DNA from: a bacterium
GTDB taxonomy: Bacteria; Verrucomicrobiota; Kiritimatiellia; CAIKKV01; CAITUY01
Reading direction: 5' to 3'
DNA length: 64,000 nt
NCBI GenBank assembly: GCA_037132275.1
Contig: JBAXPK010000007.1
Span: forward strand, 518 to 64,517
Shown: one piece after another, positions 3,439 to 41,162 of the stretch
How positions within the stretch are numbered: position 1 is the stretch's first letter
Layout of the letters: every line of letters begins with the position of its first letter
The notes under the pieces: model-generated
What the model saw: the letters and a program-made list of their open reading frames with translations, nothing else
Databases searched by the model: none
Told to the model about the DNA's origin: nothing
Program-made: the position numbers and the translations under genes

Positions 3439-3446
3439 ATACACGC

Positions 3447-3695
3447 ATGACCGTATTTTTGTTAGCCATTGTAAGTCTCTTTGGCATTGTGCCTTCGGCC
3501 ATGGCTTATGTCGGACCCGGTGCGGGACTGACGCTGGTCGGATCGTTTATCGGGCTTTGCCTCACCCTGTTGGTGGCTTTGTGGGCTGTCCTTTCGTGGC
3601 CGATTCGCAGACTGCTTAAGCGCAGGGGACGGGGCGCTTCAGGTGGAGAAAAGGCTCCTGAGATGGATCACACACATGACAGCCCCTCTTCTTGA
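3447..3695 (+). CDS. Small hydrophobic membrane protein (2 predicted transmembrane segments)
   Basis: ATG at 3447 lies 9 nt after the ASST-like stop. The sequence MTVFLLAIVSLFGIVPSAMAYVGPGAGLTLVGSFIGLCLTLLVALWAVLSW is strongly hydrophobic with a basic tail. No homolog recognised. Confidence 0.35.
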   Translation: MTVFLLAIVSLFGIVPSAMAYVGPGAGLTLVGSFIGLCLTLLVALWAVLSWPIRRLLKRRGRGASGGEKAPEMDHTHDSPSS

Positions 3696-4131
3696 CCTGA
3701 TTGACACGCGTTTGCTGGGATTCCTGCCTGACTTGGCTAAAATCGCGGTGTGGGCCGTGCTGTGCAGCATCATCTCCATGGCACTCTACCGGTGGCTTTC
3801 CCCGCAGAAGCGGCTGGCGGCGGCCAAAGATGACGCCAACCGGACGCGCCTGACGCTTTCCCGCTACGATGGTCCAGGGGACGGGTTGCCCCCGCTCATC
3901 AGGGCATCGTTACTCGCGGCACTCCGGCATATGGGTTTGTGTTTGGGGCCCGCTCTTGTGTCTTCAATTCCCGTGATCGCCATATTCCTATGGATGAACG
4001 CCGTCTACGGCACACCGGCGCGGGACACCCTGTCATTCGGCCCGTCCTGGTTCAGGGCATGGTATGTGCCGTTCAGTGTCGTCATGCTGGCGGCATCACT
4101 GACGATCAAGAAGGTGTGGCGCATTGTGTAG
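3676..4131 (+). CDS. Hypothetical membrane protein
   Basis: Internal ATG (MTAPLLDL...) of ORF 3643..4131 was chosen to minimise overlap. Hydrophobic segments AKIAVWAVLCSIISMALY, SIPVIAIFLWMNAVY and FSVVMLAASLTI are present. No homolog recognised. Confidence 0.35.
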   Translation: MTAPLLDLIDTRLLGFLPDLAKIAVWAVLCSIISMALYRWLSPQKRLAAAKDDANRTRLTLSRYDGPGDGLPPLIRASLLAALRHMGLCLGPALVSSIPVIAIFLWMNAVYGTPARDTLSFGPSWFRAWYVPFSVVMLAASLTIKKVWRIV

Positions 4132-4155
4132 GCGGGGTCTGCTGGAGTAAGGTTC

Positions 4156-5280
4156 ATGGACAAAACAACACAAGAGAGTTCGGACTTTCAGGTTGACTGG
4201 TTGACAAACCGATTGAGCCAATGGGTCTGGAAGTCGCCGGGGCGTGCTGTTCGGCTGGGGAACCATGAGAGCCGGTGGTTTGCCGATGAATTACAGTCCT
4301 GCCCGGTTCAGAAGCCGGTGTTCATTGCGGGGTTGGCAAGGTCGGGAACCACGATCCTGCTGGAGTTCATGGCGATGCTAGACGGGGTGGCCACCCATCG
4401 ATACCGTGATTTCCCGCTGGTGCATATGCCTATCTGGTGGAACGAGTTCCTGAACCTCACTCCCCGGAAACGCATGGAGCCCGTCGAAAGGAGCCATCGC
4501 GACGGCATTGTGATCACGCCCGAAAGCCCGGAGGCGATGGAAGAGCCCCTCTGGATGAGTTTCTTTCCGCTGGCCCACGACTCGGCGGTCAGCCAGGTGC
4601 TGAATGCGGCCACGGTGAACCCGGGATTTGAAGCGTTTTTCCAAGACCACTTGCGCAAGATCCTGTTCGTGCGCCAGGGTCGCCGCTATGTGTCGAAGGG
4701 CAATTACAACGTCACGCGGCTCGAGTATCTCCTGCGTCTGTTTCCGGACGCACGGTTTGTGGTGCCGGTGCGGGAACCTGCGGGGCACGTGGCTTCACTC
4801 ATCAAGCAGCACCGCATCTTCGGCGAAAATCTTCGAGGCAATCCGCGTGCGCTTGAGTATCTGCGCCGCGTTGGGCACTTCGAATTCGGGCCGGACAGGC
4901 GGGCGATCAATGTGGGGGACACGGTCCTGGCCCGGGAGATTGAAGCGTTGTGGGCCGCCGGCGAAGAGGTGCGTGGTTGGGCCCGATACTGGGCCTCCAT
5001 CCATGGTTTCCTTGCGGGGCGCATGGAATCGGATCCGCTCTTTCGGAAGGCTGTACGACTGGTTCGGTTTGAGGAACTGTGCGAGCGGCCGGCCGCTGAA
5101 CTCAGGAAGATCGCGGAGCATGGTGAGTTTACAGATGCCGCGCGAGGCGCGGACTCTTTCGCGGAACGAATTCGGTTCCCTCGGTACTACGCGCCTTCGT
5201 TCAGTGAAGCCGACGGGATGGCCATTAAGGACGAAACGGCGTCCGTGTTCATGCGACTCATGCGTCTCCAACAACAATGA
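4156..5280 (+). CDS. PAPS-dependent sulfotransferase
   Basis: Carries the 5'-PSB-type P-loop of sulfotransferases (FIAGLARSGTTILLEFM). Size (374 aa) and downstream helical regions fit the sulfotransferase fold. It sits directly upstream of pstS-like and the PAPS-synthesis genes. Confidence 0.6.
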   Translation: MDKTTQESSDFQVDWLTNRLSQWVWKSPGRAVRLGNHESRWFADELQSCPVQKPVFIAGLARSGTTILLEFMAMLDGVATHRYRDFPLVHMPIWWNEFLNLTPRKRMEPVERSHRDGIVITPESPEAMEEPLWMSFFPLAHDSAVSQVLNAATVNPGFEAFFQDHLRKILFVRQGRRYVSKGNYNVTRLEYLLRLFPDARFVVPVREPAGHVASLIKQHRIFGENLRGNPRALEYLRRVGHFEFGPDRRAINVGDTVLAREIEALWAAGEEVRGWARYWASIHGFLAGRMESDPLFRKAVRLVRFEELCERPAAELRKIAEHGEFTDAARGADSFAERIRFPRYYAPSFSEADGMAIKDETASVFMRLMRLQQQ

Positions 5281-5293
5281 AAGGGCTCGTATT

Positions 5294-6244
5294 ATGAAGA
5301 ACAGGCAGTTTTATAATGGGATGTCGGTATTACTTGCCGTGGTTTCGCTTCTGGGCGCAGGCTGCGGTAAGCGGCAGACTGCGCCGGAGGCCCGGATCAC
5401 GGTTTCGGGTGCCTGGGCGCTTTACCCGATGATGGTGAAATGGGCGGAAGAATATAGGAAGTCACATCCCGGGATTCAGATCGATATTTCTGCAGGCGGA
5501 GCCGGAAAAGGGATGACGGATGCCTTATCAGGCGCCGCCGATATCGGCATGGTTTCACGGGATATCAATCCCTCCGAAGCGGGTAAGGGGGCATGGTGGG
5601 TGGCGGTGGTCAAGGATGCCGTGATTCCCGTCATGAATGCCTCAAACCCGAACGGCGGCATCCTCGCCAAACGGGGTCTCAAGAAAGAGGAATTTACCGC
5701 CATCTTTGTGAAGGGAAATGTTCAGGATTGGAGTTTTGCGGGCGGCACACCAACTCCGCTTCATGTTTATACTCGATCAGACGCCTGCGGCGCAGCGGAA
5801 ACCTGGGCCAAGTATCTTGGCGCCAAGCAGGAAGACTTGAAGGGAACCGCCGTTTACGGGGATCCCGGCGTGGCCGAAGCCGTGCGCAAAGACGTGTCAG
5901 GCATCGGGTTCAATAATCTGATTTTCGCCTATGACATCAAGAGCGGTCAACCCCTTCCGGGTATATGCGTCATCCCCATCGACAGCAATGGGAACGGCGC
6001 CGTGGATCCCGGGGAGGATTTCTATGGGACCCACAAGGCGGTCATGCAGGCAATTGCTACGGGGCGTTATCCCTCCCCGCCAGCCCGTGATCTGAATCTG
6101 GTGCATCATGGGCCCCCCCCGTCCGGACCTGTTGCCGATTTTATCAAGTGGGTGCTTGCGGAGGGGCAAGCGTTTGTATCCGAAGCCGGCTATATCGCCC
6201 TGCCCGCTGAAATCCTCAACAGCCAGAAGGCAAAGCTGAAATAG
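5294..6244 (+). CDS. pstS: PstS-family periplasmic oxyanion-binding lipoprotein (phosphate-binding protein homolog)
   Basis: Signal peptide plus lipobox (LLAVVSLLGAGCGK). Alignable to E. coli PstS: SGAWALYPMMVKWAEEY against TGAGATFPAPVYAKWADTY, and SAGGAGKGMTDALSGAADIGMVSRD against [22 protein letters not shown]. Contains a C8 tract at 6113-6120. Confidence 0.65.
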   Translation: MKNRQFYNGMSVLLAVVSLLGAGCGKRQTAPEARITVSGAWALYPMMVKWAEEYRKSHPGIQIDISAGGAGKGMTDALSGAADIGMVSRDINPSEAGKGAWWVAVVKDAVIPVMNASNPNGGILAKRGLKKEEFTAIFVKGNVQDWSFAGGTPTPLHVYTRSDACGAAETWAKYLGAKQEDLKGTAVYGDPGVAEAVRKDVSGIGFNNLIFAYDIKSGQPLPGICVIPIDSNGNGAVDPGEDFYGTHKAVMQAIATGRYPSPPARDLNLVHHGPPPSGPVADFIKWVLAEGQAFVSEAGYIALPAEILNSQKAKLK

Positions 6245-6247
6245 GCC

Positions 6248-7150
6248 ATGGATCGTGATTCCATACGACAGGGACTGGATTGCTGGGGCCGCCGAGGCAT
6301 GGTTGCGACGGTGGCGATGTGCATTTTACTCCTACTGCTTATGGCGATGGGCCTGCTGTGGAAATCCTGGCCCATTCTTAGCTCACATTCACTGGCAGGC
6401 CTGTTTCTTTCCAGCGTCTGGAAACCCCATGGAGGGCAGTTCGGATTTCTGGCCTTCATTCTGGGTTCCTTATGCATTACCGGAGTAGCGGTGCTGCTGG
6501 CCGCGCCGGTTTCGTTGTTAACGTCCATCTATCTGTCCGAATATGCCGGACGCCGGATCCGGGCGTTGATGTCGCCCCTGATCGATCTCCTGGCGGGCAT
6601 TCCCTCGGTGGTTTACGGGGTGTGGGGAGTGCTGGTGGTCGTTCCCCTGGTGAAAGATCATCTAGCGCCGGTATTCGGCCGATATTCATCCGGGTATTGC
6701 GTTCTTTCCGCCGGGGTGGTGCTGGCCATCATGATTTTGCCTGTCGTCATTCATGTGGGCCTGGATGTGTTGAAGTCCGTTCCCCAGGGGTTGCGCGAGG
6801 CCTCCCTGTCACTGGGCGCGAATCGGTGGGAAACGGTGAAGCATGTAGTATTGCGGCGTGCGGCGCCGGGCCTGTTGGCCGCCAATGTTTTAGGCGTGTC
6901 GCGGGCCTTTGGCGAGACGATGGCCGTTCTCATGGTGGCGGGGAACGTCGCCGTGACTCCGAAATCCGCATTCGATCCCGCCTACCCGCTACCCGCGCTC
7001 ATTGCCAACAACTACGGCGAGATGATGTCGATCCCGCAGTATGACTCCGCCCTGATGCTGGCGGCGCTCATGCTTTTCGTGGTGGTACTGGGTTTCAATT
7101 TATTGTCGCGCTGGGTTTTTGCCCGTATGGAGTTGCGCATTTCAGGATGA
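6248..7150 (+). CDS. pstC: Pst-type ABC transporter permease (PstC-like)
   Basis: Six-TM permease with the EAA-like loop (...LREASLSLGANRWETVKHVVLRRAAPGL...), positioned between pstS and pstA homologs. Confidence 0.65.
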   Translation: MDRDSIRQGLDCWGRRGMVATVAMCILLLLLMAMGLLWKSWPILSSHSLAGLFLSSVWKPHGGQFGFLAFILGSLCITGVAVLLAAPVSLLTSIYLSEYAGRRIRALMSPLIDLLAGIPSVVYGVWGVLVVVPLVKDHLAPVFGRYSSGYCVLSAGVVLAIMILPVVIHVGLDVLKSVPQGLREASLSLGANRWETVKHVVLRRAAPGLLAANVLGVSRAFGETMAVLMVAGNVAVTPKSAFDPAYPLPALIANNYGEMMSIPQYDSALMLAALMLFVVVLGFNLLSRWVFARMELRISG

Positions 7151-7154
7151 ACCC

Positions 7155-8003
7155 ATGAGAAAGCAGATTGAAGAAATTGCCGCCAAAATCCTGATGATCG
7201 GAGCCGCCGTGGTGGTGGCCGGGATGGTCGTTTTGATTCTCGGAACCGTGTTATGGCGCGGCCTCCCGGCGTTGAGTTGGGAAATGATCTCGCAGACTCC
7301 GTCCGGCGGTTACTATCTCGGAAAGGGCGGCGGCATTCTCAATGCCATCGTCGGGTCACTTTCGGTGGCCGGTGGCGCAACCCTGCTGTCGCTCGGCCTG
7401 GCTTTGCCAGTGGCGTTGAGCCTGAATGTCTATTTCAAGACCCATTCCCGACTGGCGGGTTGCGTCAGGGGCTCGTTGGATGTGCTGTGGGGTGTGCCCT
7501 CCATTGTCTATGGCGCCTTCGGGTTTGCGTTTATGCTTTGGCTCGGACTCCGCGCTTCCCTCCTGGGGGGGATTATCACCGTGGCTTTGATGATCCTCCC
7601 CATCATGATCCGGGCCATGGATGAAGTGATTCACATGGTTCCGCACGAGATGCTGGAAGCCTCCGATGCCCTGGGTGCCACCCGGTGGGAGGGCGCCTGG
7701 AAGGTAATCCTCCGGCAGGCGCTTCCCGGACTTGCCAGCGCGGCGCTGATCGCCTTCGGGCGGGGGATCGGGGATGCCGCCTCTGTTCTTTTCACGGCGG
7801 GATTTTCGGACCGGATTCCGATGTCACTTGCGGATCCTGCTGCGACCCTGCCGCTGGCCATATTCTTCCAGTTGGGTACCCCGTTCCCGGAGGTTCAGCA
7901 ACGGGGCTATGCTGCGGCGCTGATATTAACGGCCATCGTGCTGACGGCCAGCGCTCTGGCGCGTCTGGTCAGCCATCGGGCGGGACGGTTTGTAATTCGA
8001 TGA
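7155..8003 (+). CDS. pstA: Pst-type ABC transporter permease (PstA-like)
   Basis: ATG at 7155 lies 4 nt after the pstC stop; the longer 7119 start would overlap. TM-rich sequence with the EAA motif (EASDALGATRWEGAWKVILRQALPGL). Confidence 0.65.
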   Translation: MRKQIEEIAAKILMIGAAVVVAGMVVLILGTVLWRGLPALSWEMISQTPSGGYYLGKGGGILNAIVGSLSVAGGATLLSLGLALPVALSLNVYFKTHSRLAGCVRGSLDVLWGVPSIVYGAFGFAFMLWLGLRASLLGGIITVALMILPIMIRAMDEVIHMVPHEMLEASDALGATRWEGAWKVILRQALPGLASAALIAFGRGIGDAASVLFTAGFSDRIPMSLADPAATLPLAIFFQLGTPFPEVQQRGYAAALILTAIVLTASALARLVSHRAGRFVIR

Positions 8004-8013
8004 AGGACATACC

Positions 8014-8775
8014 ATGACAGCCAATACCCCTATTGAAGTGAAAGACCTGAATGTGCATTACGGCACGATCCATGCTTTGAAAAATATCCACGTTAGTATC
8101 CCCAATTGCCAGATCACGGCAGTCATCGGCCCCTCGGGGTGCGGTAAGTCTACCTTGTTGCGTTCGTTCAACCGCATGCTCGACACCATGGATGATGTGC
8201 GGGTCACAGGCGGGGTGCTGGTCGACGGTGAGAATATTTTTGCGGCCAATGCGGATGTGCCGCGTCTACGCCGCAAGATGGGACTGCTTTCTCAGCGGCC
8301 GTTTCTCCTGCCTATGTCGATCTATGACAATGTGGCCTACGGGCCGCGCATCCATGGGATCAGCCGCCATTCCGACCTGGATTGCACCGTGGAAAAATAC
8401 CTCCGGATGGCCAACATGTGGGATGAGGTCAAGGATCGTCTTCGCGAGCCCGCTGCAAAGCTGTCGATCGGTCAACAGCAACGGCTCTGCCTGGCGCGGG
8501 GCCTCGCTGTGGAACCCGAGATTATCCTGGCGGACGAGCCCACCTCGGCGCTGGACCCGATTTCAAGCCGTCACATTGAACAACAATTCCGAGAGTTACG
8601 GGCTGACTACACGCTGGTGATGGTGACCCATATTCTTCGGCAGGCCCGTCGCCTGGCCGACTATGTGCTTTTCATGTATCTGGGTGAACTCATCGAGCAC
8701 GGGCCGGCGGCCGAACTGTTTGAGAATCCCCGCGAGGAATTGACGAAGGATTATATCAAGGGAACGATCAGTTAG
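8014..8775 (+). CDS. pstB: Pst-type ABC transporter ATP-binding protein (PstB-like)
   Basis: Near full-length colinearity with E. coli PstB: Walker A AVIGPSGCGKSTLLR, PMSIYDNVAYG, LSIGQQQRLCLARGLA, ILADEPTSALDPIS and LFMYLGELIEHG. Length of 253 aa matches PstB rather than CysA. Confidence 0.8.
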   Translation: MTANTPIEVKDLNVHYGTIHALKNIHVSIPNCQITAVIGPSGCGKSTLLRSFNRMLDTMDDVRVTGGVLVDGENIFAANADVPRLRRKMGLLSQRPFLLPMSIYDNVAYGPRIHGISRHSDLDCTVEKYLRMANMWDEVKDRLREPAAKLSIGQQQRLCLARGLAVEPEIILADEPTSALDPISSRHIEQQFRELRADYTLVMVTHILRQARRLADYVLFMYLGELIEHGPAAELFENPREELTKDYIKGTIS

Positions 8776-8786
8776 GAGGCCAGGCC

Positions 8787-9308
8787 ATGGTGAGTAGTAA
8801 GATTCAACCTGCAGTCGTGTGGTTCACCGGATTATCAGGGTCCGGCAAGAGTACCCTTGCTGAGAAGGTGGAGCACGCCCTGAAGATGCGTGGCGTGGAC
8901 ACCGAGATTCTGGATGGCGACCGGGTTCGCGCGGTCTTTCCGAGCATCGGGTTCTCCCTTGAGGAGCGCAACGCGCATATCCGCCGCATGGGCTTCATGG
9001 CGGGTCTCCTTGAGAAACACGGTGTGGTGGTGCTGGCGAGTTTCGTGTCGCCTTATGCAGAGGCCCGCCAGGCGGCGCGGTGGCAATGCCGCAATTTTAT
9101 TGAGGTCTATCTTTCCACCCCCCTCGCCGAATGCGAGCGGCGCGATGTGAAAGGTCTCTACGGCAAGGCGCGCCGGGGCGAGATCTCCAACTTCACCGGA
9201 GTCAGTGATCCGTATGAAGTTCCGGAGAATCCGGATCTGGTTATCGACACCACCGCCATGAGTGTGGAGGAATCTGTTGCCCTGGTTCTGGGGAGATTGC
9301 AGTCATGA
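8787..9308 (+). CDS. cysC: Adenylylsulfate (APS) kinase
   Basis: [16 protein letters not shown] Walker A and an LDGDRVR loop. A 173-aa standalone kinase domain. Confidence 0.8.
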
Positions 9309-10210
9309 CAATCCATTCCCTGACCCATTTGAAGCAACTGGAAGCCGAGAGCATTCATATCATGCGCGAGGTGGCCGCAGAATTCGAGCGGCCGGTCATG
9401 CTTTACTCGGTCGGGAAAGACTCATCGGTCATGGTGCGGCTGGCCCAGAAGGCCTTTTACCCCGGACGGATTCCCTTTCCACTGATGCATGTGGATACAG
9501 GTTTCAAATTCGGGGAGATGATTGAGTTCCGTGACCGGTTTGTGAAGGAGATCAAGGCGGATCTTATTGTGCATCAGCATGAAAAATCAGCCGACCTGTC
9601 GGTGAATCCCTTTGCCCTCGGAACCCAGAAGTGCTGTGCGATACTTAAGACGCAGGCTCTGGTGGAAGCCATACGCAAACATAAGTTTGACGCCGCTTTC
9701 GGGGGCGCCCGCCGCGAGGAGGAGAAATCGCGGGCCAAGGAGCGGGTGTTCTCCTTTCGGGACGAGCTCGGGCAGTGGGATCCCAAAAACCAGCGTCCGG
9801 AACTGTGGAGCCTCTATAATACCCGGGTCAACACAGGCGAATCCATCCGAGTATTCCCCATCTCCAACTGGACCGAGTTGGATGTCTGGCAATATATCTA
9901 CATGGAAAAGATTCCGGTGGTGCCCATGTACTTTGCGCAGGAGCGCGACATGATTGTGAGGGATGAGCAGTTGATTCCGTTCCAGGAAACCACGCCGCTC
10001 AAACCGGGCGAACACCCCTGCAAAGTGCTGAGTCGATTCCGCACCCTGGGCTGTTATCCCTGTACCGGGGCCATCCGGTCATCGGCGTCAACGGTGGCGG
10101 AAATCATCGAGGAAATGATGGTCGTACGCATCTCCGAACGTTCGACCCGCGTGATTGATCATGACGCCGAGGGCTCGATGGAAATGAAGAAACGGGAAGG
10201 GTATTTCTAG
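9305..10210 (+). CDS. cysD: Sulfate adenylyltransferase subunit 2 (CysD/NodP)
   Basis: Near-identical block structure to E. coli CysD: [38 protein letters not shown] (PP-loop SxGKDS), [22 protein letters not shown] and [15 protein letters not shown] overlap with cysC. Confidence 0.9.
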
Positions 10211-10211
10211 A

Positions 10212-12143
10212 ATGAATGCGATTGAGGCATTTCTGGCGGAGAATGAGAAGAAGGATCTGCTTCGGTTTTCGACGGCGGGCAGCATTGACGACGGCAAGTC
10301 AACCCTGATCGGCCGTTTACTGCACGACTCAAAGAATGTCTACGAGGATACGCTGGCGTCGATCAAAAAGGCGTCTCGTGAAAAAATGTCGGAGGAACAG
10401 ATCGACCTTGCCTTGCTCACTGACGGTCTTAAGGCAGAACGCGAGCAGGGGATCACCATTGACGTCGCCTACCGCTATTTTTCGACACCGCGCCGGAAAT
10501 TCATCATCGCCGACACGCCCGGACACGAGCAATACACCCGGAATATGGCGACCGGCGCCTCGACCGCCAATCTTTCGGTTGTGCTGGTGGATGCGCGTCA
10601 TGGCATCCTTCCCCAGACGCGGCGCCATGCGTTTATCGCCTCCCTGCTGGGGGTGCCGCACATGATTGTGGCCGTGAACAAAATGGATGCCGTGGACTAT
10701 CGGGAAGACGTCTTTCAGGCGATTCGCGACGAGTTCGCTGAGTTTGCCTCGAAGCTGGGCATCAAGGATCTGCGTTTCATTCCGCTGAGTGCCCTCAAGG
10801 GCGATAACGTCGTCCATCGCAGTGGAAACATGACCTGGTACCGGGGCGAAAGCCTGATGGAAATCCTGGAGAACGTCTACATCGGCAGCGACCATAATCT
10901 CGTGGATCTGCGGTTCCCCATCCAATATGTGGTGCGCCCGGATATGGGCTTCCGCGGCTATGCCGGAGTTGTCACCTCCGGTGTCATCCGTCGGGGGGAT
11001 GAGGTGTTGGCGCTCCCTTCGATGAAAGTCAGCCGGGTCAAATCGATTGTCACCTTTGATGGCGACGTGGAAGAGGCCTGTTCGCCCATGTCGGTAACGG
11101 TCACCCTGGAAGACGAGCGTGATATCAGCCGCGGGGAAATGCTGGTCCGTCCGCATAACCTTCCCAAAATGGACCGGCGTTTTGAAGGCATGGTGGTGTG
11201 GATGGGGGATGCCCCAATGGATCTGAATGCCAGCTATTTCATCAAGCACACCACCCGCCTGACCCGGTGCCGGGTGGACGAAATCCGTTACAAGGTGAAT
11301 GTGAACACCCTGGCCAGAGAGGCCATGACGGGACTCGCCTTGAATGACATTGGCCGGGTTGTCTTCACCGCCAATCAACCCCTGTTCAGTGATTCCTACG
11401 AGAAGAACCGGGGAACCGGCTCATTTATCCTGATTGACCCCGTGACCAACGCCACTGCGGCAGCCGGGATGATCATTGATCGCGAACCAGCGGAACAGCT
11501 TGTTTCCCGCATCACCCCCGGGGTAGGGGCGCACACGATGAGCCGGCATGGCCGCCAGATCGAGGCCGGGGAGCGGGTGGCGCGTTATGGGCAGAAGCCG
11601 GCGACCCTGTGGCTGACCGGTCTGGTGGGATCGGGAAAATCAAGTCTGGCTGGCGCGCTAGAGCGGAAGCTTTTCGACTTGGGCGCCGTCAGCGTTGTCC
11701 TCGATGGTTCGAATGTGCGGTCGGGCCTCAACCGTGAACTGGATTTCACGTCCGAGGGGATGGCCGAACATCTCCGCCGCGTCGCTGAGATGGCTCGGCT
11801 CCTGAACGATGCCGGGTTGGTGGTTATATGCGCCTTTGTTTCCCCTCATGAAAAGGTGCGCCGGCAGGTGGCTGAAATTATTGGAATCGACCGGTTTCTG
11901 GAAGTTCACGTGGATGCGCCCCTTGAGTGGTGCCAGGCTCACGACCACACTGGGTTCTATCAGCGGGCCGAGGTAGGCGAGGTGCGCAACGTGGCGGGCA
12001 TCAGTTTTCCTTATGAAGCGCCGACCACGCCCTCGCTCAGGGTGTCGACGCCGGATATGACGCCTGAAGGTGCTGTATCAATCGTCATGAACCTGCTGCG
12101 TAAACAAGGGATATTCCCGGTCGGTGCTCTCTCAAATGAGTGA
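10212..12143 (+). CDS. cysN: Bifunctional sulfate adenylyltransferase subunit 1 (GTPase) / APS kinase, NodQ-like
   Basis: N-terminal EF-Tu-like GTPase ([27 protein letters not shown]). C-terminal APS kinase ([33 protein letters not shown]). 643 aa. Confidence 0.85.
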
Positions 12144-14318: not shown

Positions 14319-14407
14319 GCTCAACCCTAGGGGCCGGGCGCGATGCCGGGGCAGTACTGACTAGACCCCAATGAAATCCTAATGGTTGTCAAACATTGCT
14401 CTAACGA

Positions 14408-16810
14408 TTGAATGTTATAATTCACATCCATATGGAATCAGCTACGGGTACAATGACAGGCGGCGATGATCTGGCAAGGCTCCGCAGCCTGTTGCAGATG
14501 GGTGAAGGCGGTGACCGCCTGGCTGAGGCGCTGCCATTCGGCATTGGCGATGCGACGGCAGGCGCCGAGAACGAACTGCAGACGGTGGTAACTGGTCCTC
14601 GCGAACAGGTAGATCTGGCCCGTGCGGTGGAGGAATCGAGCTACTTCAAGAACCTCATGCGGCGCGCCGCCGTGGGGGAAGCCTCCAAGAGCCTGGTTCG
14701 GGACATTAAGGATTTCCTGGCGGACAACCGGGAGTCGGCTTGGGAGAACAGTTGGGTGTACTTCCCGGCAGACCTCATGACGCCTTATGCGCAGTCCGTG
14801 TTCGAGGGGGATCTGTATGCCGACAAACAGGCGCCGGGCGTCCGCCGATCAGATGCAGGCCGTTTTGAGATTCAACGCAACGGGATCCGTTGCGTTCGCA
14901 TTCCCGTAAGTTATCTCCTGAAGCTGGCACTGGCCGATGCCATCAGCTTCGGTCGGGAACCGCACCCGGTGGTTCGCAGCACAGGCGAGAGGCTGATGCG
15001 TCATTTCCTCAACGACAACACCTCTCCCGAGACGCTGTCGTTCCACACAGTGGGTTCATCGTCCGAGCCGGGATTGGGCCGTGCGCTGGCAGAGGAGACG
15101 CTGAGGCGTTTTCTGCTGGTGCAGTTTCTGACCATGTACGCGAACGAGAAGTTCGAGCTGCGCGCAAGGGGGCAGCAGACGCTGGTCTGCCTCGCGCCGC
15201 ACACCCCCCGGCGCCAGAAGCAGTTGAATGAAATGGTGGCGGACTCGTTCTATCGCGACCTCTTCATGAGTCCATGCCTGTCAGGGTGGGATCGCGGGGA
15301 GGACAAGTACCATTATATGATCCTGTGCCACGAGGTGCTTTCGCGCAGCCGGCTCAACACCATGGCAAAGCTGCGCGAGTGTGGCATTCTTTCACGGGAT
15401 TTGGTGACCCTGCCGACGGTGTCCAACACGAGCCTGGCCAACAACGGCACGCATATCACCCTGGGCAGCCGCCGCCTTACCGCCTTGATGGCCCCCGGCG
15501 GGGGCAATGGGTTCACGGCGCAGGACGAAAAACGGACGGGCGACCTCGTTGTAAAGATTGTTGAACATTTTCTCCCCCTCTTTGTCGGGACTTACACAGC
15601 GGCGCCGCACCGGTTGGATTTTCGCGACTTTCATCCGGAGTCAGTGTTGGGATTTCTGCCGCACGAACTCGACTTCACCCATTTGCGCATGTTGTGGCGG
15701 CGCTGGCAGGGCAAGGCCGATCTCAAATGCCTGGGGGTCACGCTGACGCCCTTCGGGCCGCGTGCGCTGGATCGTTTCCTGGCCACGGTGCTCGGGTTAC
15801 GCGGCGACTGGGTGCCGGATCAGCGCCTGATTGACTACCTTGTCTCGCCCCTGAGCACGGACCACAGTCCGGCCCTTGACGGGACGATAGGCAATGATGA
15901 GCGGCTCAAGCGGGATCTGGCCCAGATGGGTGTGTTTGACCCACGGATGTCTTTCTACTCCCTGTATCGCCAGCGGATTTTCTCCAAGATGGGATTCTGC
16001 GGGTTTGAGGGGCGCCACTACAGCCAGTTCGCGAGCATCACCCGGGACATGGCTGCGGCCACCGATATGCAGCGGCTGGTTACCGCGTTGGCCTACCAGT
16101 ATGTGTTGACTGGCGCCGTGACCCATGTAGACATCCCGGACACGCCTGAAGTCGAGAGCGAACGGCGCCAGGTCTTTTTCGGGACGGCCATCGGTATCCC
16201 GACGTTTTTTGTCAGAACTCAGACCTCGAACCGGTTTCTCCAGCATATCCTGGGACGAGCGGCACGAACCCGTGATAGTCACCGGTATTCGGGGCGCACC
16301 CGCGTTTATAACGACGAATACCGCCGGGCACTAGTGGCAACCCTGGAACATGACGGTGCGGGGCTGATCGAATCCCTCGGGCTCGGTGAGACCGTGAGCG
16401 ACCTGAAGCGGAGAATCGAGCCGGCCGGAAAAGGATCGGCGCTGGACGCCCTCCTCACGGGAATTCTGGACGAGGCGGGAACCTCATCACCGCTGAAAGC
16501 GTCCGCAGGGACATTCAACGAGGCGGCGGAACGCTACTACCGGGACACCCTGCTGAAGAATTTTGTGGCTGAAGCGCTTGATTTGTTCGCCCGCGACCTG
16601 AAGGAACTCGCAAGCCGCTCGTCTGGCGGTGGGGAGGAGGCGAAGGCCCTATTGTCGGCGCTAAACGGGGAGGATCCGACTTCCTTCCTGGAGGCGGTAC
16701 GGGGCACGGTGCTGGAAGGGAAAGTCTCCCAGTCCGTTCTGGTCAAGCTCATCAGCCTCGTACTGCTGGTCATCCGCCACCACTGTGAAGAGAACGGAGG
16801 CAAACCATGA
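14408..16810 (+). CDS. Large (about 800 aa) cytoplasmic protein of unknown function
   Basis: Long ORF with coding-like composition, no signal peptide or TM, and no P-loop or other motif I can recognise. Start uncertain (ATG 14408, 14432 or 14453). Its stop overlaps the psd start (ATGA at 16807-16810). Confidence 0.5.
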   Translation: MNVIIHIHMESATGTMTGGDDLARLRSLLQMGEGGDRLAEALPFGIGDATAGAENELQTVVTGPREQVDLARAVEESSYFKNLMRRAAVGEASKSLVRDIKDFLADNRESAWENSWVYFPADLMTPYAQSVFEGDLYADKQAPGVRRSDAGRFEIQRNGIRCVRIPVSYLLKLALADAISFGREPHPVVRSTGERLMRHFLNDNTSPETLSFHTVGSSSEPGLGRALAEETLRRFLLVQFLTMYANEKFELRARGQQTLVCLAPHTPRRQKQLNEMVADSFYRDLFMSPCLSGWDRGEDKYHYMILCHEVLSRSRLNTMAKLRECGILSRDLVTLPTVSNTSLANNGTHITLGSRRLTALMAPGGGNGFTAQDEKRTGDLVVKIVEHFLPLFVGTYTAAPHRLDFRDFHPESVLGFLPHELDFTHLRMLWRRWQGKADLKCLGVTLTPFGPRALDRFLATVLGLRGDWVPDQRLIDYLVSPLSTDHSPALDGTIGNDERLKRDLAQMGVFDPRMSFYSLYRQRIFSKMGFCGFEGRHYSQFASITRDMAAATDMQRLVTALAYQYVLTGAVTHVDIPDTPEVESERRQVFFGTAIGIPTFFVRTQTSNRFLQHILGRAARTRDSHRYSGRTRVYNDEYRRALVATLEHDGAGLIESLGLGETVSDLKRRIEPAGKGSALDALLTGILDEAGTSSPLKASAGTFNEAAERYYRDTLLKNFVAEALDLFARDLKELASRSSGGGEEAKALLSALNGEDPTSFLEAVRGTVLEGKVSQSVLVKLISLVLLVIRHHCEENGGKP

Positions 16811-17823: not shown

Positions 17824-18923
17824 GCGCCGCCATCGTCGTGGGAATCATGACGCTCTGCCTCGGGGTATTGTTTTTCTGGGCGTTTCGCGTCCTGCCCGGC
17901 GAGCCGTGGCAAATTCTGGCGGTATGGCCGCGCCAGAAGGAGCCTGATGGCACATGGCGCGGTACGAACCTGACTTACTATGGTCTATTCAATGGTCTAG
18001 GATTGGCGGTGGCGGTGGCGGTGACGGTGTTTCTGCTGGGAACCATGCGAATGCCGCTGCCCTATGTGGCGTGGTGTGTCTTTGTTCTCCTGGCGGTCAC
18101 GGTTCCTGCTTCCAAAATTGTCAATCGCATGGTGGAGGGACATTGGCACGGGTTCACCATTGGAGGGGCCTCATTCGTCGGGATGGTGGCGGGCCCCTGG
18201 TTGGTCTGGGGTATTTCCCGCCTGACTCTGTCAGCGGAGGAAGGGGCGATGGCGACGGTGTCTGTGATGGGTGCCATAGCGTGTGCCTATGCGTTGGGTG
18301 AAGGCATCGGGCGGTTAGCCTGCATCAGTTTCGGCTGTTGTTACGGGCGACCGCTGGCGGACTGTCCAGCCTGGCTTTCAAAATTATTCACTCACGGGGC
18401 TTTTGTCTTTGAGGGACGCTTAAAAAAATCCTCTTACGAACACAGGTATGAAGGCAAACGCCTGATTCCTGTGCAGGCCCTGACCGCCATCATCTCCAGC
18501 ATGGCCGGGCTCGTCGGCATGGCGGTATTCCTGGGCGGGCATCCGGTTCTAGCCTATGTGATGCCGGTTGTCGCTACGCAGGTGTGGAGGTTTGTGTCGG
18601 AATTCCTGCGGGCGGATTACCGGGGGGCGGGGCGGATTACTGCCTACCAGGGCATGGCCCTTGCGGGAGCGGCCTATACGGTGGCGCTTGGCCTTCTGTG
18701 GTCCGGCACGCTGGCGCTTACTCCCGATGTGGCTCGCGGCCTGGCGTTGCTATGGACTCCTGGCGCGATTCTATTAATTGAAGCCGTCGCCCTCTTTGTT
18801 GCCATTCGCATGGGCCTCAGTACAGTCACAACGGCCAGAATTCATTTCGGCCTCAGGCAGGATGGCGTGCCACCCGTGTCCCCTGCCTTGCGAACATCTG
18901 ACGGCTCGCTAACTCAGGACTAA
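17820..18923 (+). CDS. Divergent Lgt-family (prolipoprotein diacylglyceryl transferase-like) membrane protein
   Basis: ATGA overlap with psd. Multi-TM. WHGFTIGGASFVGMVAG against Lgt W.GGMSFHGGLIG. GEGIGRLACISFGCCYGRP against Lgt GAGRLGNFINGELWGR, with GN/NGE replaced by AC/GCC. WRFVSEFLRADYRG against Lgt FRIIVEFFRQPD. Confidence 0.5.
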   Translation: MSAAIVVGIMTLCLGVLFFWAFRVLPGEPWQILAVWPRQKEPDGTWRGTNLTYYGLFNGLGLAVAVAVTVFLLGTMRMPLPYVAWCVFVLLAVTVPASKIVNRMVEGHWHGFTIGGASFVGMVAGPWLVWGISRLTLSAEEGAMATVSVMGAIACAYALGEGIGRLACISFGCCYGRPLADCPAWLSKLFTHGAFVFEGRLKKSSYEHRYEGKRLIPVQALTAIISSMAGLVGMAVFLGGHPVLAYVMPVVATQVWRFVSEFLRADYRGAGRITAYQGMALAGAAYTVALGLLWSGTLALTPDVARGLALLWTPGAILLIEAVALFVAIRMGLSTVTTARIHFGLRQDGVPPVSPALRTSDGSLTQD

Positions 18924-18942
18924 TCTTTCTGCGGCATAGTCC
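18917..18942 (+). promoter_or_regulatory. Palindromic motif GGACTA-N14-TAGTCC containing the GACTAATC core (site 1)
   Basis: GGACTAATCTTTCTGCGGCATAGTCC overlaps the stop of the Lgt-like gene and lies just upstream of the secreted-protein gene. Its arms covary with site 2. Confidence 0.4.
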
Positions 18943-18950
18943 GCTGATCT

Positions 18951-19703
18951 ATGGCCGGTTCCCATAACCCTATCATGTCGGCGGGAGTCCTTCTCCTGAC
19001 TCTCTGCCTCCTTCCTGTCCACGCGGCCCATCCTCGCTTCTCTATCCCATCCCCAATCGCGCAGCCCTCTCCACTCACGAATAGGCCATCATTAATACCT
19101 TCCCCTTCCTTCTCTCGCTATTCCATCATCCTGACCCGGATGCCATTTGGAAACGAGGCGCCCTCTGTCGCCACTGCGGCCCGGGCCGAGGCCGCGGACA
19201 TTCCGGCTGAAAGTTTCTCCAAGACCCTTACGCTGTGCGCGATTACCCGAAGCCATGACACCGGCAAAGTCCAGGTTGGGCTTGTGGACCATGAGACCCG
19301 AAAAAGTTACTTCCTTGGCGAGGGTGATAAAGAAGATGGCCTGGAACTGAAGGAGGCCGATTATGTGGAGGAGAAGGCGTTACTCGCGATGGGGGAGAAG
19401 GAAGTGTGGTTGACGATGAAGGCGGGGGCGATGAAGACCCCTACGGGTGTCCGCAATCCATTCGGTTTTGAGAGCGCAACGTCTTCTCCACCGCCAAGCC
19501 CCGATGAGTCCGGAACCATGACCTTAGCGGCTATGAGCGGGGAGGCGGAGCCTGCCGCCGACAGTTTTAAGAAGCTCGTTATGAGTTCTCAAATGGAACT
19601 GCTTCGCGCCCGTGGCGCCAAGGGCCCGCCCTTGCCCATGGCCCTCACGCCAGAAATGGATGATCAACTCGTCAAGGAAGGCGTCCTCGCCCAGACGGAG
19701 TAG
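18951..19703 (+). CDS. Secreted Pro/Ser-rich hypothetical protein
   Basis: A signal-peptide-like N-terminus (alternative start MSAGVLLLTLCLLPVHAA at 18975). Low-complexity PSP-rich region. Flanked on both sides by GACTAAT motifs. Confidence 0.4.
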   Translation: MAGSHNPIMSAGVLLLTLCLLPVHAAHPRFSIPSPIAQPSPLTNRPSLIPSPSFSRYSIILTRMPFGNEAPSVATAARAEAADIPAESFSKTLTLCAITRSHDTGKVQVGLVDHETRKSYFLGEGDKEDGLELKEADYVEEKALLAMGEKEVWLTMKAGAMKTPTGVRNPFGFESATSSPPPSPDESGTMTLAAMSGEAEPAADSFKKLVMSSQMELLRARGAKGPPLPMALTPEMDDQLVKEGVLAQTE

Positions 19704-19745
19704 GACAGAACGACATGGCGGGCGAGTATGAGCGCCCTTACAAAG

Positions 19746-19783
19746 TTCTGACCGCAGACTAATTCGAGACTAATCATTCTGCG
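19746..19783 (+). promoter_or_regulatory. Tandem AGACTAAT direct repeats (11-bp register) plus palindrome AGACTA-N14-TAGTCT (site 2)
   Basis: AGACTAATTCG AGACTAATCATTCTGCGGCATAGTCT lies 60-100 nt upstream of the response-regulator start. An 11-bp direct-repeat register is typical of OmpR/PhoB-family binding sites. Confidence 0.45.
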
Positions 19784-19843
19784 GCATAGTCTGACCCAGA
19801 TTATATCCCGGGCGCTGTTCCCGTTCGCAGGGACGACTATTCT

Positions 19844-20542
19844 ATGGCTGTTGCTCAGAAACATATACTGATTGTTGAAGACGAGGATGATATCCTTGAG
19901 TTGGAGCGCTACAATCTGACGCGGGAGGGCTTCAGCGTGGCCGCAGTTTCGCGCGGCGAGGATACCCTCAAGGCGGTGACCCAGAAGAGGCCGGATCTCA
20001 TTCTCCTGGATCTCATGCTGCCGGGTATGAACGGGCTTGAAGTGTGCCAGAAACTCAAAGCAGATCCCTCAACCGCCGACATCCCGATCATCATGGTCAC
20101 AGCCAAAGGCGAGGAATCGGACATCATTGTGGGGCTGGAACTCGGGGCGGACGATTATGTGAACAAGCCCTTCAGCATCAAAGTGCTCATTTCCCGCATC
20201 CGTGTTGCGCTGCGCCGTCAGCCGATCAAAGCTTATGACCAGAAGCATGGCCTGCGGGTCGGTGACGTGGAGATCAATCCCAGCCGTTTTCAGGTGAAGA
20301 TCAAGGGAAAACCCATTGTGGGGCTCACGGTGACAGAGTTCCACCTGCTTCACTTTCTTGCCAGCCGTTCAGGCCGTGTCATGAACCGGCAACAGATCCT
20401 GGATGCTGTGCGCGGTGAGGATATTGCCGTGACTGAGCGGGCGGTGGATGTCCAGATGGTCGGCTTACGCAAGAAGCTCGGCTCCGCCGCAGATTACATT
20501 GAGGCCGTGCGTGGAGTGGGATACCGCTTCAGGGACGGCTGA
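19844..20542 (+). CDS. OmpR/PhoB-family response regulator (orphan, no adjacent kinase)
   Basis: REC domain (ILIVEDEDDI...LILLDLMLPGMNG...IIMVTAKGEE). C-terminal winged helix (...GLTVTEFHLLHFLASRSGRVMNRQQILDAV...VGYRFRD). Confidence 0.85.
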   Translation: MAVAQKHILIVEDEDDILELERYNLTREGFSVAAVSRGEDTLKAVTQKRPDLILLDLMLPGMNGLEVCQKLKADPSTADIPIIMVTAKGEESDIIVGLELGADDYVNKPFSIKVLISRIRVALRRQPIKAYDQKHGLRVGDVEINPSRFQVKIKGKPIVGLTVTEFHLLHFLASRSGRVMNRQQILDAVRGEDIAVTERAVDVQMVGLRKKLGSAADYIEAVRGVGYRFRDG

Positions 20543-20628
20543 GTCCTGCTGTGACCCTGTCGATGGCCCGCTGATCGCGCCTCCACACCTCCTTAAAACA
20601 CGTTTTCCACCCTTTCGGTGTCTCCGTA

Positions 20629-20636
20629 AGACTAAT
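20629..20636 (+). promoter_or_regulatory. Third AGACTAAT core copy (site 3)
   Basis: AAGACTAATTGAAAAAAACGG lies in the 360-nt AT-rich intergenic region upstream of the secreted-protein gene at 20903. Confidence 0.3.
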
Positions 20637-20902
20637 TGAAAAAAACGGAAGCTCTAATTCACTCCAAACGCTCATTTTTCATGATGCTGATGTTTTCAAA
20701 GGCTTAGGAGGTGCGCGAAGTCGGTCGGCATGGTCGGCAACAAGGCGCGGCAAGAAAGAACAGAGAAGGAGGTGAACACGAGAAAAGACGGGGATGGAAT
20801 ACGGAAGAAGGCGTGAGTCGATAACCAGTAAGATAGCATTTAACTTGAGCAAGATCATAAACGGAAAAGTTAAGACTAAAGAAACAAACAGGAATAAAAA
20901 GA

Positions 20903-22987
20903 ATGAAGAAGAATCAAAAAACTAAAATATTAGGACTGATGTCCGCTGCGGCGTTATCGCTCGGCATGCAGCAGGCCGGGGCCGCCGACGTCACAGTGTC
21001 GGCCGATATTACTGCGAATACAACGTGGTCGAGCAATAACGTGTACAAATTGGATCGCCTGATCTTCGTCAAGAACGGGGCGACCTTGACCATCCAACCT
21101 GGGACGGTTGTCCGCGGATTGCCGATCGGCCCCGTGCCACAGCAACCGGGAACGTTGCTCATCGCGCGCGGTTCGAAGATCAATGCCCAGGGCACGGCGG
21201 CGAACCCGATCGTGTTCACGGACCAGTATGACAACAATGTCGGGTCAAATCCCGGAAGCGTTGTCAATGGTAATGACTATGGCGCGCTGAACAACCAACT
21301 CACCGGGCAGTGGGGTGGCTTGATTCTCGCGGGCAAGTCCTACATTGCCTGGGACGGGATGGACAGTGTTGGCGTCTACACGCCGGACGGTACGGTCGCC
21401 ACAGCGATCGAAGGTCTGAGCAGCACGAGCGACATCAACTACGGCGGTAACAACGACCTCGACAACAGCGGCGTCTTAAACTACGTCTCGGTTCGTTATG
21501 GTGGTTACATCCTCGGGTCGTCGAAGGAAATCAACGGTATTACCTGCTGCGGCGTGGGCCGTGGTACAACGTTGGATCATCTCGACGTCTACAACACCAA
21601 GGACGACAATATCGAGTTCTTCGGCGGCACAGTCGGCATGAAGCACTTGATTGCCTGGGGTGGTAATGACGACGGGATTGACACCGACACCGGCTGGCGC
21701 GGCAAGATCCAGTTCGCGATGGTGGTTCAGGGTTACAACACCTTGGTGGGCCCTGCCCCCCAGGCTCCTGACTCCGGCGACAAAGGGTTGGAGTGGGACG
21801 GTGCGGGCGACAGCACGGGGTTCAATGACGATCCCCAGTCCTGTGGCACGATGTTCAACTTCACGCTCGTCGGCATGGGCTCGAACTCCATGGACCAGGC
21901 GAACACCGCCTTCAACCTGCGCGACAACGCGGGTGGACGGTTGTACAACGGCCTTGTTCTGGATTTCGGTGGCGGTTGCACCCTGATCGAGGGTAACACC
22001 AACTCCTGGCCTCTTGGCGCAAACTGCTCGGCGATGAAACTGTTCCAGGACTATGCCCAGGACAGCTACTTCACCAGCGGCACGAACAAGCAGGGCGTGG
22101 CTCTGACCTACAAGCCGGCCAATATCAACTACATCGGCTATCCCGATGCCATCGCCGGGTCCAAGAAGATGGAATTCAAGAAGATTGCGTTCTGGAACAT
22201 GGGCATCCCTCATTCCATCGGTATGAATGCCGGGTTCGACACCACTGCCGGCAAACTGCTGTGCGGGTCGGACAATGGTCGTTTCTCAACCCATGAACAC
22301 TTCGGTTTCTACCCGGACAATACGGGTTATGACATCGTCGCGGCGGGCAACGCAGGCGGCAATACGGTTGAAGCAGCTCTTCCGATCCAGTACTACGAGC
22401 GGGACGCTGTCGCGGCCACATTCCAGCCGACGTTCCGTTCGGGTGCTCACCCCTACACCAACGTCAAGTTGATTGACCCCCGCGTCACCACCAACCTTAT
22501 GACCAAGGGTATCATGCCTCCGGCCGACGGATTCTTCACCCCTGTGAACTTCCTTGGCGCAATGGGCACGAAGAACTGGGCGGGTCCGTGGAGCACGGCG
22601 TGGCGCTTGGGTGGTTTTGTGACCAACGGCGTGCCTACCGGCGACGAAACCGGTATCGTGCCTAAGATCACCAAGACCGGCTCGGGTTCCACCGGCAAGG
22701 TGAACATCTCGCTGGCCAACGACTCTTATCTGGGGACGCAGGCGGACTTCTGGCTGATTGCAGCCAAGGGAACCACCTACTACCACTACAACTTGGCCAA
22801 CAACAAGTGGGTGTTAGGTCTCAATCCCACCTATCAGGGGGCCTTGATCGACCTGGGTGTGACCCCGATGTCGATGACGTACCTGCCCACAGGCAGCTAC
22901 ACGGTGTACTTCGGTGTGGATCTGGTCAAAGATGGCGCTCTCCAGTTGGACAGCCTGTCTGTCGCGGCCGTGACCTACACGCGGTAA
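20903..22987 (+). CDS. Large secreted protein; C-terminal ~100 aa domain shared with CDS 2..1873
   Basis: Signal peptide MKKNQKTKILGLMSAAALSLGMQQAGA. Gly/Asn/Thr-rich. C-terminus DFWLIAAKGTTYYHYNLANNKWVLGLNPTYQGALIDLGVTPMSMTYLPTGSYTVYFGVDLVKDG aligns with the C-terminus of the first CDS. Confidence 0.6.
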   Translation: MKKNQKTKILGLMSAAALSLGMQQAGAADVTVSADITANTTWSSNNVYKLDRLIFVKNGATLTIQPGTVVRGLPIGPVPQQPGTLLIARGSKINAQGTAANPIVFTDQYDNNVGSNPGSVVNGNDYGALNNQLTGQWGGLILAGKSYIAWDGMDSVGVYTPDGTVATAIEGLSSTSDINYGGNNDLDNSGVLNYVSVRYGGYILGSSKEINGITCCGVGRGTTLDHLDVYNTKDDNIEFFGGTVGMKHLIAWGGNDDGIDTDTGWRGKIQFAMVVQGYNTLVGPAPQAPDSGDKGLEWDGAGDSTGFNDDPQSCGTMFNFTLVGMGSNSMDQANTAFNLRDNAGGRLYNGLVLDFGGGCTLIEGNTNSWPLGANCSAMKLFQDYAQDSYFTSGTNKQGVALTYKPANINYIGYPDAIAGSKKMEFKKIAFWNMGIPHSIGMNAGFDTTAGKLLCGSDNGRFSTHEHFGFYPDNTGYDIVAAGNAGGNTVEAALPIQYYERDAVAATFQPTFRSGAHPYTNVKLIDPRVTTNLMTKGIMPPADGFFTPVNFLGAMGTKNWAGPWSTAWRLGGFVTNGVPTGDETGIVPKITKTGSGSTGKVNISLANDSYLGTQADFWLIAAKGTTYYHYNLANNKWVLGLNPTYQGALIDLGVTPMSMTYLPTGSYTVYFGVDLVKDGALQLDSLSVAAVTYTR

Positions 22988-23048: not shown

Positions 23049-23170
23049 GTCTACAAAAGGGTGGGAGGGCGTCGTGATATAAAGAATGCAAACCCAAAAC
23101 ACACACGGGTTTAATATCAGGCTAACAATCGGAACCTATAATCACGCCTTTAATCAAAGGAACACATCTC

Positions 23171-36300: not shown

Positions 36301-36309
36301 GAGAATCTC

Positions 36310-38373: not shown

Positions 38374-38387
38374 GGAGCGTCGCCGGG

Positions 38388-41155: not shown

Positions 41156-41162
41156 CATTACC

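Follow-up and report, generated by a model that had tools for sequence, protein, structure and literature searches.

We analyzed a 64,000-nucleotide stretch of DNA from a bacterium of the Kiritimatiellia (assembly GCA_037132275.1, contig JBAXPK010000007.1, positions 518 to 64,517), referred to below as the window, with a focus on two related 26-bp sites located upstream of the genes for a 250-aa predicted secreted protein and an OmpR/PhoB-family response regulator. We consider it likely that a Pho-box-type, activator-dependent promoter is present here in two paralogous copies, whose promoter-proximal halves are site 1 (GGACTAATCTTTCTGCGGCATAGTCC, 18917-18942) and site 2 (AGACTAATCATTCTGCGGCATAGTCT, 19767-19792), and that these sites belong to a predicted PhoB-type Pho-box regulon with autoregulation, for which phosphate limitation would be the likely signal. 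An earlier note on this DNA had read both sequences correctly and had located site 1 exactly, but had placed site 2 at 19757-19783, 10 bp away from its actual position; the start given there belongs to an extra upstream AGACTAAT at 19756-19763.

The conserved unit at these sites consists of four to five pentamers (CTTAC, CTGAC or CTAAY) at an exact spacing of 11 bp, followed by 10 bp and a -10-like hexamer. Sites 1 and 2 each lie in an array reading CTTRC, CTGAC, CTAAY, CTAAY in this register, with a 10-bp spacer before CATAGT, and their likeness is longer than first noted, as 44 of 58 positions are identical from 18885 and 19735 onward. The earlier idea of a GACTAAT box in 11-bp direct repeat was partly borne out. 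A second AGACTAAT does stand exactly 11 bp upstream of the site 2 copy (starts 19756 and 19767), but the real unit is the CTAAY pentamer in arrays of four to five rather than a GACTAAT pair. The heptamer GACTAAT alone was not significantly enriched in the window (6 observed vs 2.8 expected, with 8 of 100 shuffles reaching 6), and the 26-mer was present in two copies, a number reached in none of 100 shuffles. The two promoter copies and the regulator gene are as follows:

18887-18940, + strand: promoter copy 1, holding site 1, before the 250-aa gene; CTTGC 18887-91, CTGAC 18898-902, CTAAC 18909-13, CTAAT 18920-24, 10-nt spacer, CATAGT 18935-40; kept in related loci L001 (9140) and L003 (9077).
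19737-19790, + strand: promoter copy 2, holding site 2, before the regulator gene; CTTAC 19737-41, CTGAC 19748-52, CTAAT 19759-63, CTAAT 19770-74, 10-nt spacer, CATAGT 19785-90; kept in L001, L003, L005, L007, L010, L011, L089 and L090.
19844-20542, + strand: gene for the 232-aa response regulator of PhoB type, comprising receiver and winged-helix domains (PF00072, PF00486).

The copy 1 array overlaps the last ~40 nt of an LGT-like open reading frame (ORF), whose TAA stop (18921-23) lies inside repeat 4. Before the regulator gene, where a distance of 60-100 nt had been claimed, the box array was measured at 70-107 nt upstream of the ATG at 19844. The 10-nt spacer before an xAxxxT hexamer recurs at 1987, 14390, 18909, 19759, 20654, 23111 and 50918. 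Thus, two features of PhoB-controlled promoters were observed: direct repeats of at least two units at 11 bp, with four to five phased pentamers at every strong site, and a box standing in place of the -35 element, ~10 bp before the predicted -10. No TTGACA-like hexamer could be read at 16-18 bp from the -10, and a scan for sigma-70 -35/-10 consensus sequences found no match at the sites, which led us to reject a sigma-70 reading. Sigma-54 and extracytoplasmic function (ECF)-type readings were discarded by eye because the spacing does not fit. The predicted start sites would leave the 250-aa gene nearly leaderless, unless it uses a second ATG at 18975, and would give leaders of ~47 nt to the regulator gene and ~210 nt to the gene of a 694-aa beta-helix protein downstream.

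The pattern CWAAY-N6-CWAAY-N11-A-N3-T occurred six times in the window against 0.02 expected, and none of 100 shuffles reached six. A 22-nt double-box position weight matrix (PWM), built from 32 sites that partly came from the window, gave eight matches of at least 16 bits in the window against a simulated mean of 0.1, and every box match was co-oriented with a downstream gene. A 44-nt PWM derived from 10 mostly orthologous sites was rejected as over-fitted, since it recovered only its four training sites in the window.

From its sequence, the regulator appears to be specifically PhoB-like. It combines a receiver with an OmpR/PhoB winged helix, the receiver residues D13, D56, T86 and K108, which include the phospho-acceptor, are intact and invariant in the regulator alignment, and its best NCBIfam model was TIGR02154 (PhoB, 237.6 bits). 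The closest solved structure was RegX3. Since no histidine-kinase gene is adjacent, we call the regulator an orphan; the closest kinase gene within the window encodes a CBS-HisKA-REC hybrid (42462-44165), and past the window end the contig carries genes of housekeeping type with no phoR among them. Orphan and PhoR-linked homologues have near-identical recognition helices (ERAVDVQMVGLRKKL) and wings (VRGVGYRF). A small terminator-like hairpin (GTTCCC...GGGAC, 19816-19835) was also seen in the predicted 5' leader of the regulator gene, and a related hairpin-forming stretch is found at the corresponding position of L003 and, possibly, of L001.

The array CTTAC-N6-CTGAC-N6-CTAAT-N6-CTAAY-N10, followed by a -10, precedes the regulator gene in each of the nine orphan-type loci that were examined, with CATAGT, CATGAT, CAAACT, CAAAGT and similar hexamers as -10 variants. 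The OmpR/PhoB-type 11-bp register proposed in the earlier note is therefore conserved (72-100% identity where measured), despite upstream neighbours that differ from locus to locus (glycosyltransferases, polyketide synthase (PKS), LGT-like), and it was also found upstream of six PhoR-linked homologues (53-65% identity). Two of these (L091 and L092, 63-65%) lie in phoB-phoR-porin-pstSCAB-phoU operons, and the other four (L019-L022, 53-55%), from metagenome-assembled genomes (MAGs) of Victivallaceae/Lentisphaeria type, are followed by a PhoR-type kinase gene. All six carry yTAAC-N6-CTAAC upstream of phoB, a box that also precedes the porin gene in L091 and L092 and pstS in L092. In three loci that did not contribute to the PWM, phased CTAAY arrays immediately precede pstS next to phoBR-phoU: L015 (Fibrobacteria), L023 (Pirellulales, with two pstS genes) and L014 (Zixibacteria). 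Because the regulator is PhoB-like, because the recognition helix is shared and because the same boxes stand at the phoB, porin and pstS genes of relatives, we propose that the box is the Pho box of this PhoB subfamily. Autoregulation, as suggested in the earlier note, and a local regulon can likewise be inferred with good support, as the register upstream of the regulator gene is conserved and the same architecture precedes the neighbouring 250-aa and 694-aa genes.

The most plausible origin of sites 1 and 2 is duplication of an ancestral regulator promoter. In L005, L007 and L010, the regulator gene has a single promoter, which the distal half of site 1 (CTTGCGAACATCTGAC) resembles, and the 250-aa gene between the two copies was found only in the closest relatives. 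Elsewhere among the loci, phased CTAAY arrays in the Fibrobacteria MAG (L015, 17815-17841 and 3668-4497) precede a methyl-accepting chemotaxis protein gene and small uncharacterised genes near pst-phoBR, which hints at Pho-controlled chemotaxis in that organism. In other orphan-regulator lineages (L005 2202-9868; L007/L090 1133-9802, - strand), glycolipid-type genes (monogalactosyldiacylglycerol (MGDG) synthase-like, family 4 glycosyltransferase (GT4), acyltransferase) or a large polyunsaturated fatty acid (PUFA)/PKS-like synthase are found upstream, so that lipid-related genes recur beside the orphan regulator.

The regulator gene lies downstream of genes for an 800-aa protein, a phosphatidylserine decarboxylase, the LGT-like membrane protein (ending at 18923) and the 250-aa protein, and upstream of genes for the 694-aa beta-helix protein, a TPR protein, a TonB-dependent receptor, ExbB, TonB and more TPR proteins. 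The gene order regulator, beta-helix, TPR, TonB receptor, ExbB, TonB is kept in orthologous loci with 72-92% regulator identity. A regulon limited to the regulator and two secreted proteins had been proposed previously; the shared architecture at these three genes was confirmed, but the predicted regulon is larger. The further genes and boxes are:

18951-19703, + strand: 250-aa predicted secreted protein, no family match, between the two promoter copies.
20632-20685, + strand: promoter of the beta-helix gene; CTAAT 20632-36 (third GACTAAT), degenerate AAACG 20643-47, CTAAT 20654-58, CAAAC 20665-69, 10-nt spacer, CATGAT 20680-85; kept in six other loci (L001, L003, L007, L011, L089, L090).
20903-22987, + strand: 694-aa secreted beta-helix protein (PF28492, Beta_helix_4, precomputed in orthologues), conserved downstream neighbour of the regulator.
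23111-23142, + strand: promoter of the TPR/TonB-dependent receptor/ExbB/TonB operon; TTAAT 23111-15, CTAAC 23122-26, 10-nt spacer, TATAAT 23137-42 (perfect); orthologous sites in L007 (13348) and L090 (13300).
14357-14421, + strand: promoter of the 800-aa protein/phosphatidylserine decarboxylase/LGT-like operon; CTGAC 14357, CCAAT 14368, CTAAT 14379, CAAAC 14390, CTAAC 14401, 10-nt spacer, TATAAT 14416-21; kept in L001 (4608).
1976-2018, + strand: promoter heading the sulfation/pst gene string; GTAAC 1976, CTAAT 1987, CTAAC 1998, 10-nt spacer, CATAGT 2013-18.
34951-35004, + strand: box before polysaccharide-export (Wza-like) and Wzc-like genes; CTGAT 34951, GTAAC 34962, CTAAT 34973, CAAAT 34984, 10-nt spacer, TTTACT 34999-35004; PWM score 18.4 bits.
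50887-50933, - strand: box before sugar transferase, family 2 glycosyltransferase (GT2) and methyltransferase genes; degenerate ATACC 50929-25, CTAAT 50918-14, CTAAC 50907-03, 10-nt spacer, GATGAT 50892-87; overlaps the end of a MurJ-like gene.
53685-53711, - strand: weaker candidate box before a GT4 glycosyltransferase gene; GTAAC-N6-CTAAC with a poor -10; PWM score 16.0 bits.
42392: weak candidate box before the gene of the CBS-HisKA-HATPase-REC hybrid kinase; 14.7 bits, poor -10.

One further candidate, upstream of the gene for a PhoU-domain protein (53800-54453, - strand), was rejected because its 12-bp spacing is out of phase. The third AGACTAAT was found at 20629-20636 as reported earlier but not inside the leader of the 694-aa gene; being repeat 1 of an array that ends before the predicted -10, it precedes the predicted start site. 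Searches of PDB and NCBIfam gave no match for the 694-aa or the 250-aa protein. The leader of the beta-helix gene (20686-20902; L001 10877-11063, L003 10981-11168, L007 10894-11122, and also L090, L011 and L089) is purine-rich, ~190-270 nt long and contains many GGA motifs. It includes a conserved near-perfect Shine-Dalgarno-like block (GGAAGGAGGTG) located 120-170 nt before the start codon, and no initiation codon follows this block at the usual spacing; this could be a standby or pausing site or the target of a CsrA-like protein.

The unusual same-strand string at 2065-12143 (+) encodes an arylsulfotransferase-like protein, small ORFs, a sulfotransferase, PstS-like, PstC, PstA and PstB-like proteins, adenosine 5'-phosphosulfate (APS) kinase, CysD and CysN/C (CysN-APS kinase), and the PstC match (274 bits) was above its cutoff. 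Genes for sulfate activation and sulfotransfer thus surround those of a Pst-type transporter, and a Pho-box-type promoter heads the string. The large exopolysaccharide cluster (35014-53610) encodes Wza-like, GNVR/Wzc-like, polysaccharide deacetylase, Wzy-like, GT4, GH42-like, methyltransferase, GT2, priming sugar transferase and MurJ-like flippase proteins, and the hybrid kinase gene mentioned above is embedded in it.

The earlier note had interpreted the 26-mer as a symmetric operator for a dimeric regulator or as an RNA hairpin, preserved by compensatory changes. The 6-bp palindromes do exist at both sites, with outer pairs G-C and A-T, and a third window site (1995-2020) carries a perfect one, TGACTA-N14-TAGTCA, with T-A as outer pair. 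Three inverted repeats with arms 14 nt apart and three different outer pairs would be in line with such an operator, and the palindrome is present in all three window sites whose -10 reads CATAGTC. This three-site coincidence is somewhat striking (P about 1/4 for the third site), yet it is outweighed by the orthologue data. In the orthologues of site 2, only 1-4 of the six Watson-Crick pairs are kept, and 3 of 6 and 5 of 6 are kept at site 1 of L001 and L003, respectively. Site 2 of L001 has a palindrome in another register (AATCAT-N8-ATGATT), and hence there is no conserved dyad axis. Over 15 aligned sites, 66.7% of the positions were paired vs 62.8% after shuffling, and 40 of 500 shuffles scored as high, indicating no covariation beyond column composition. 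Predicted RNA folds of the sites (-4 to -7.6 kcal/mol, z -0.3 to -0.8) were no more stable than those of shuffled sequence, no Rfam family was matched at the gathering threshold or at an E-value up to 1, and no tRNA genes were found. Moreover, the 3' arm coincides with the -10 hexamer, which would leave most of a hairpin upstream of the predicted start site. A structured hairpin or symmetric operator is therefore very unlikely. Since repeat 4 (GACTA-AT) and the -10 plus one base (CA-TAGTC) happen to be complementary, the palindrome is incidental, probably a coincidence of the box and -10 consensus that is specific to this genome. The two direct copies flanking one small, lineage-restricted gene could also suggest an insertion with duplicated ends, that is, a dispersed repetitive extragenic palindromic (REP)-like or mobile repeat that brackets the 250-aa gene by chance. 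The earlier note had itself raised a dispersed repeat as the outcome that would count against a regulatory motif. However, when GACTAATCNTTCNGCGGCATAGTC was sought in a public metagenome collection, its single match was the orthologous locus (83% identity to window 18405-19780) rather than many copies at unrelated loci. With only two copies in the window, and with looser copies that stand at promoter geometry before genes and are conserved at orthologous positions, a dispersed repeat is scarcely credible.

It is also quite improbable that the CTAAY array is a general promoter element, contacted by a housekeeping or alternative sigma factor or by another abundant DNA-binding protein. Its density is what such an element would predict, with ~8-10 sites per 64 kb and a site in most intergenic gaps of at least 60 nt between 1.9 and 53.7 kb. 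However, a neighbouring stretch of ~16 kb with housekeeping genes (araA through rnpA, yidC, plsY, gpsA; L094) gave no PWM match of at least 12 bits, and no box was found in the 688-nt divergent intergenic region of the window at 59498-60186, absences which argue against a general role. This last region carries a TGTTATAGT extended -10 type promoter after an A-tract, plus A/T-rich blocks, an example of a box-independent promoter. Furthermore, in the six 15-20 kb loci centred on PhoR-linked homologues, the only strong matches precede phoB, the Porin_5-family porin gene and pstS, and arrays that extend to about -60 with four to five units in 11-bp phase are a usual mark of OmpR/PhoB binding rather than of sigma contacts. 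A different possibility is that the boxes are genuine Pho boxes bound mainly by a separate PhoB, linked to PhoR and encoded at a different place in the genome; the orphan would then be a target of the Pho regulon with another signal and an overlapping or diverged specificity. The solitary position of the regulator, the occurrence of PhoR-linked homologues at 53-65% identity in related lineages, and the distinct identity band of the orphan group (72-100%) all fit with this idea. Against it, the near-identical recognition helix and wing would direct both groups to the same sites, and two such regulators per cell are expected to be unusual. A regulator scan of genome contigs retrieved three close orthologues (L009-L011), the rest having at most 58% identity, and no second homologue from the genomes of L009-L011, although the peptide patterns used could miss one. 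The window also already holds pstCAB-like and phoU-like genes. Taken together, we judge a separate PhoB as the main binder to be rather unlikely.

Several observations nevertheless weigh against a PhoB-type regulon controlled by the orphan regulator. No PhoR-type kinase gene adjoins the regulator in any orphan-type locus, and in the annotated ones no HisKA gene occurs within 10 kb, so that the phoR pairing usual for the class is missing; a PhoR-linked PhoB elsewhere in the genome may bind the same boxes, although the candidate homologues belong to different MAGs judging by their protein accession numbers. The TIGR02154 score of the regulator is under the curated PhoB cutoff (296.2 bits), as are those of the homologues in phoB-phoR-porin-pstSCAB-phoU operons (250 and 249 bits). 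The PstS-like match is weak (91 bits vs a cutoff of 206) and sits among sulfate-activation genes, hence the Pst-like transporter may not carry phosphate. Window sites formed part of the training set of the PWM, which makes their own scores circular, and the -10 hexamer is poor at some candidates (42392, 53711). The box model by itself does not account for the 10-bp spacers being nearly identical in sites 1 and 2; promoter duplication, gene conversion or some unrecognised spacer constraint has to be invoked. Finally, what was observed directly is the motif, with its geometry, conservation and statistics, and the way it accompanies phoB, porin and pstS genes in relatives; binding by the regulator, activation, phosphate dependence and the start sites are deduced from these observations.

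With these points in mind, the Pho-box-type regulon could operate as follows. An unlinked kinase would phosphorylate the orphan regulator at Asp56, likely upon phosphate limitation, and tandem dimers of the regulator would then occupy the repeats in head-to-tail orientation, with centres near -25, -36, -47 and -58. The bound regulator would recruit RNA polymerase in place of the -35 contact, activating its own gene (positive autoregulation) and the 250-aa gene. Through the same architecture, it would activate the beta-helix gene, the TPR/TonB-receptor/ExbB/TonB operon, the lipid-related operon, the pst/sulfate-activation string and the exopolysaccharide genes, which on our best reading make up the regulon together with the regulator and the 250-aa protein.

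Escherichia coli Pho promoters have an 18-bp double box at a distance of 10 bp from the -10 and no -35, and PhoB substitutes for the missing -35 contact. The promoters described here resemble those controlled by E. coli PhoB (pstS, phoA, phoB) in having an OmpR/PhoB-family regulator, 11-bp direct repeats and an 18-bp double box at the place of the -35. In both cases, the regulator gene carries its own box, and strong promoters have extra upstream boxes. Unlike in E. coli, no phoR follows the regulator gene, arrays of four to five units are the rule, the recognition helix departs from that of E. coli PhoB at several positions (VDVQMVGLR vs VDVHIRRLR), and the predicted targets include exopolysaccharide, sulfation and TonB-receptor genes. 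The box itself is CTAAY, in contrast to the CTGTCAT core of the E. coli Pho box (PMC4415409). The PHO box lies around the -35 box, and the TAAY core found here fits the TMAY half of the pan-bacterial consensus NTKTMAYHWWHYNKTMAY (PMC8601176). The cyanobacterial SphR (PhoB) box, made of 8-bp CTTAACCT repeats joined by 3-bp linkers (PMC1906773), shares a near-identical core (yTTAAy vs CTAAy), the 11-bp register and at least three tandem units. It differs in one core base (TTAAC vs CTAAC) and belongs to another phylum, and SphR binding was shown experimentally while the box reported here is read from sequence. Streptomyces PhoP, also a regulator of PhoB/PhoP type, binds arrays of 11-nt direct repeat units (DRus, GTTCACC) that vary in number (PMC2275107); there, the repeat sequence is unrelated, the host is a high-GC Gram-positive bacterium and PhoP is linked to PhoR. 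A further likeness is with the PhoB-PhoR-pstSCAB-PhoU loci of Verrucomicrobia-type, Lentisphaeria, Fibrobacteria, Pirellulales and Zixibacteria MAGs (L091, L092, L019-L022, L015, L023 and L014), which share the subfamily (53-65% identity), the recognition helix where aligned and the CTAAC-N6-CTAAC boxes. In those loci, however, the regulator gene is co-transcribed with that of a PhoR-type kinase (HAMP-PAS-HisKA), whereas the window regulator is solitary and linked to the beta-helix/TonB-receptor cluster. The literature searched contained no description of a CTAAY/11-bp Pho box for these phyla.

What appeared as a covarying palindrome thus becomes an interpretable regulatory code, a CTAAY/11-bp Pho box common to several poorly studied phyla, and the palindrome is a by-product of ordinary regulation in an uncultured bacterium. 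As PhoB-type activation from direct repeats that replace the -35 is textbook knowledge, the gain concerns annotation and ecology rather than a new principle. The box suggests that the TonB-dependent uptake cluster and the sulfation and exopolysaccharide genes respond to phosphate limitation. A more far-reaching scenario is possible, if doubtful: in this uncultured lineage of the PVC group (Lentisphaerota/Kiritimatiellota-like), a PhoB uncoupled from PhoR may have moved to the head of a phosphate-starvation island of ~50 kb, where the boxes would turn on genes for sulfate activation, for sulfotransferases, for exporting an exopolysaccharide that is probably sulfated, for membrane lipids and for a dedicated beta-helix/TonB-receptor uptake system, the CTAAY/11-bp box being common to Verrucomicrobiota-type bacteria, Planctomycetota, Fibrobacterota and Zixibacteria. 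If true, phosphate scarcity would re-tailor the whole cell surface toward phosphorus-free, sulfated polymers, and the box would be usable for regulon prediction in those uncultured groups. The box allows Pho regulons to be predicted straight from MAG sequence, and its main value lies in annotating regulons in uncultured lineages of the PVC and Fibrobacteres-Chlorobi-Bacteroidetes (FCB) groups.

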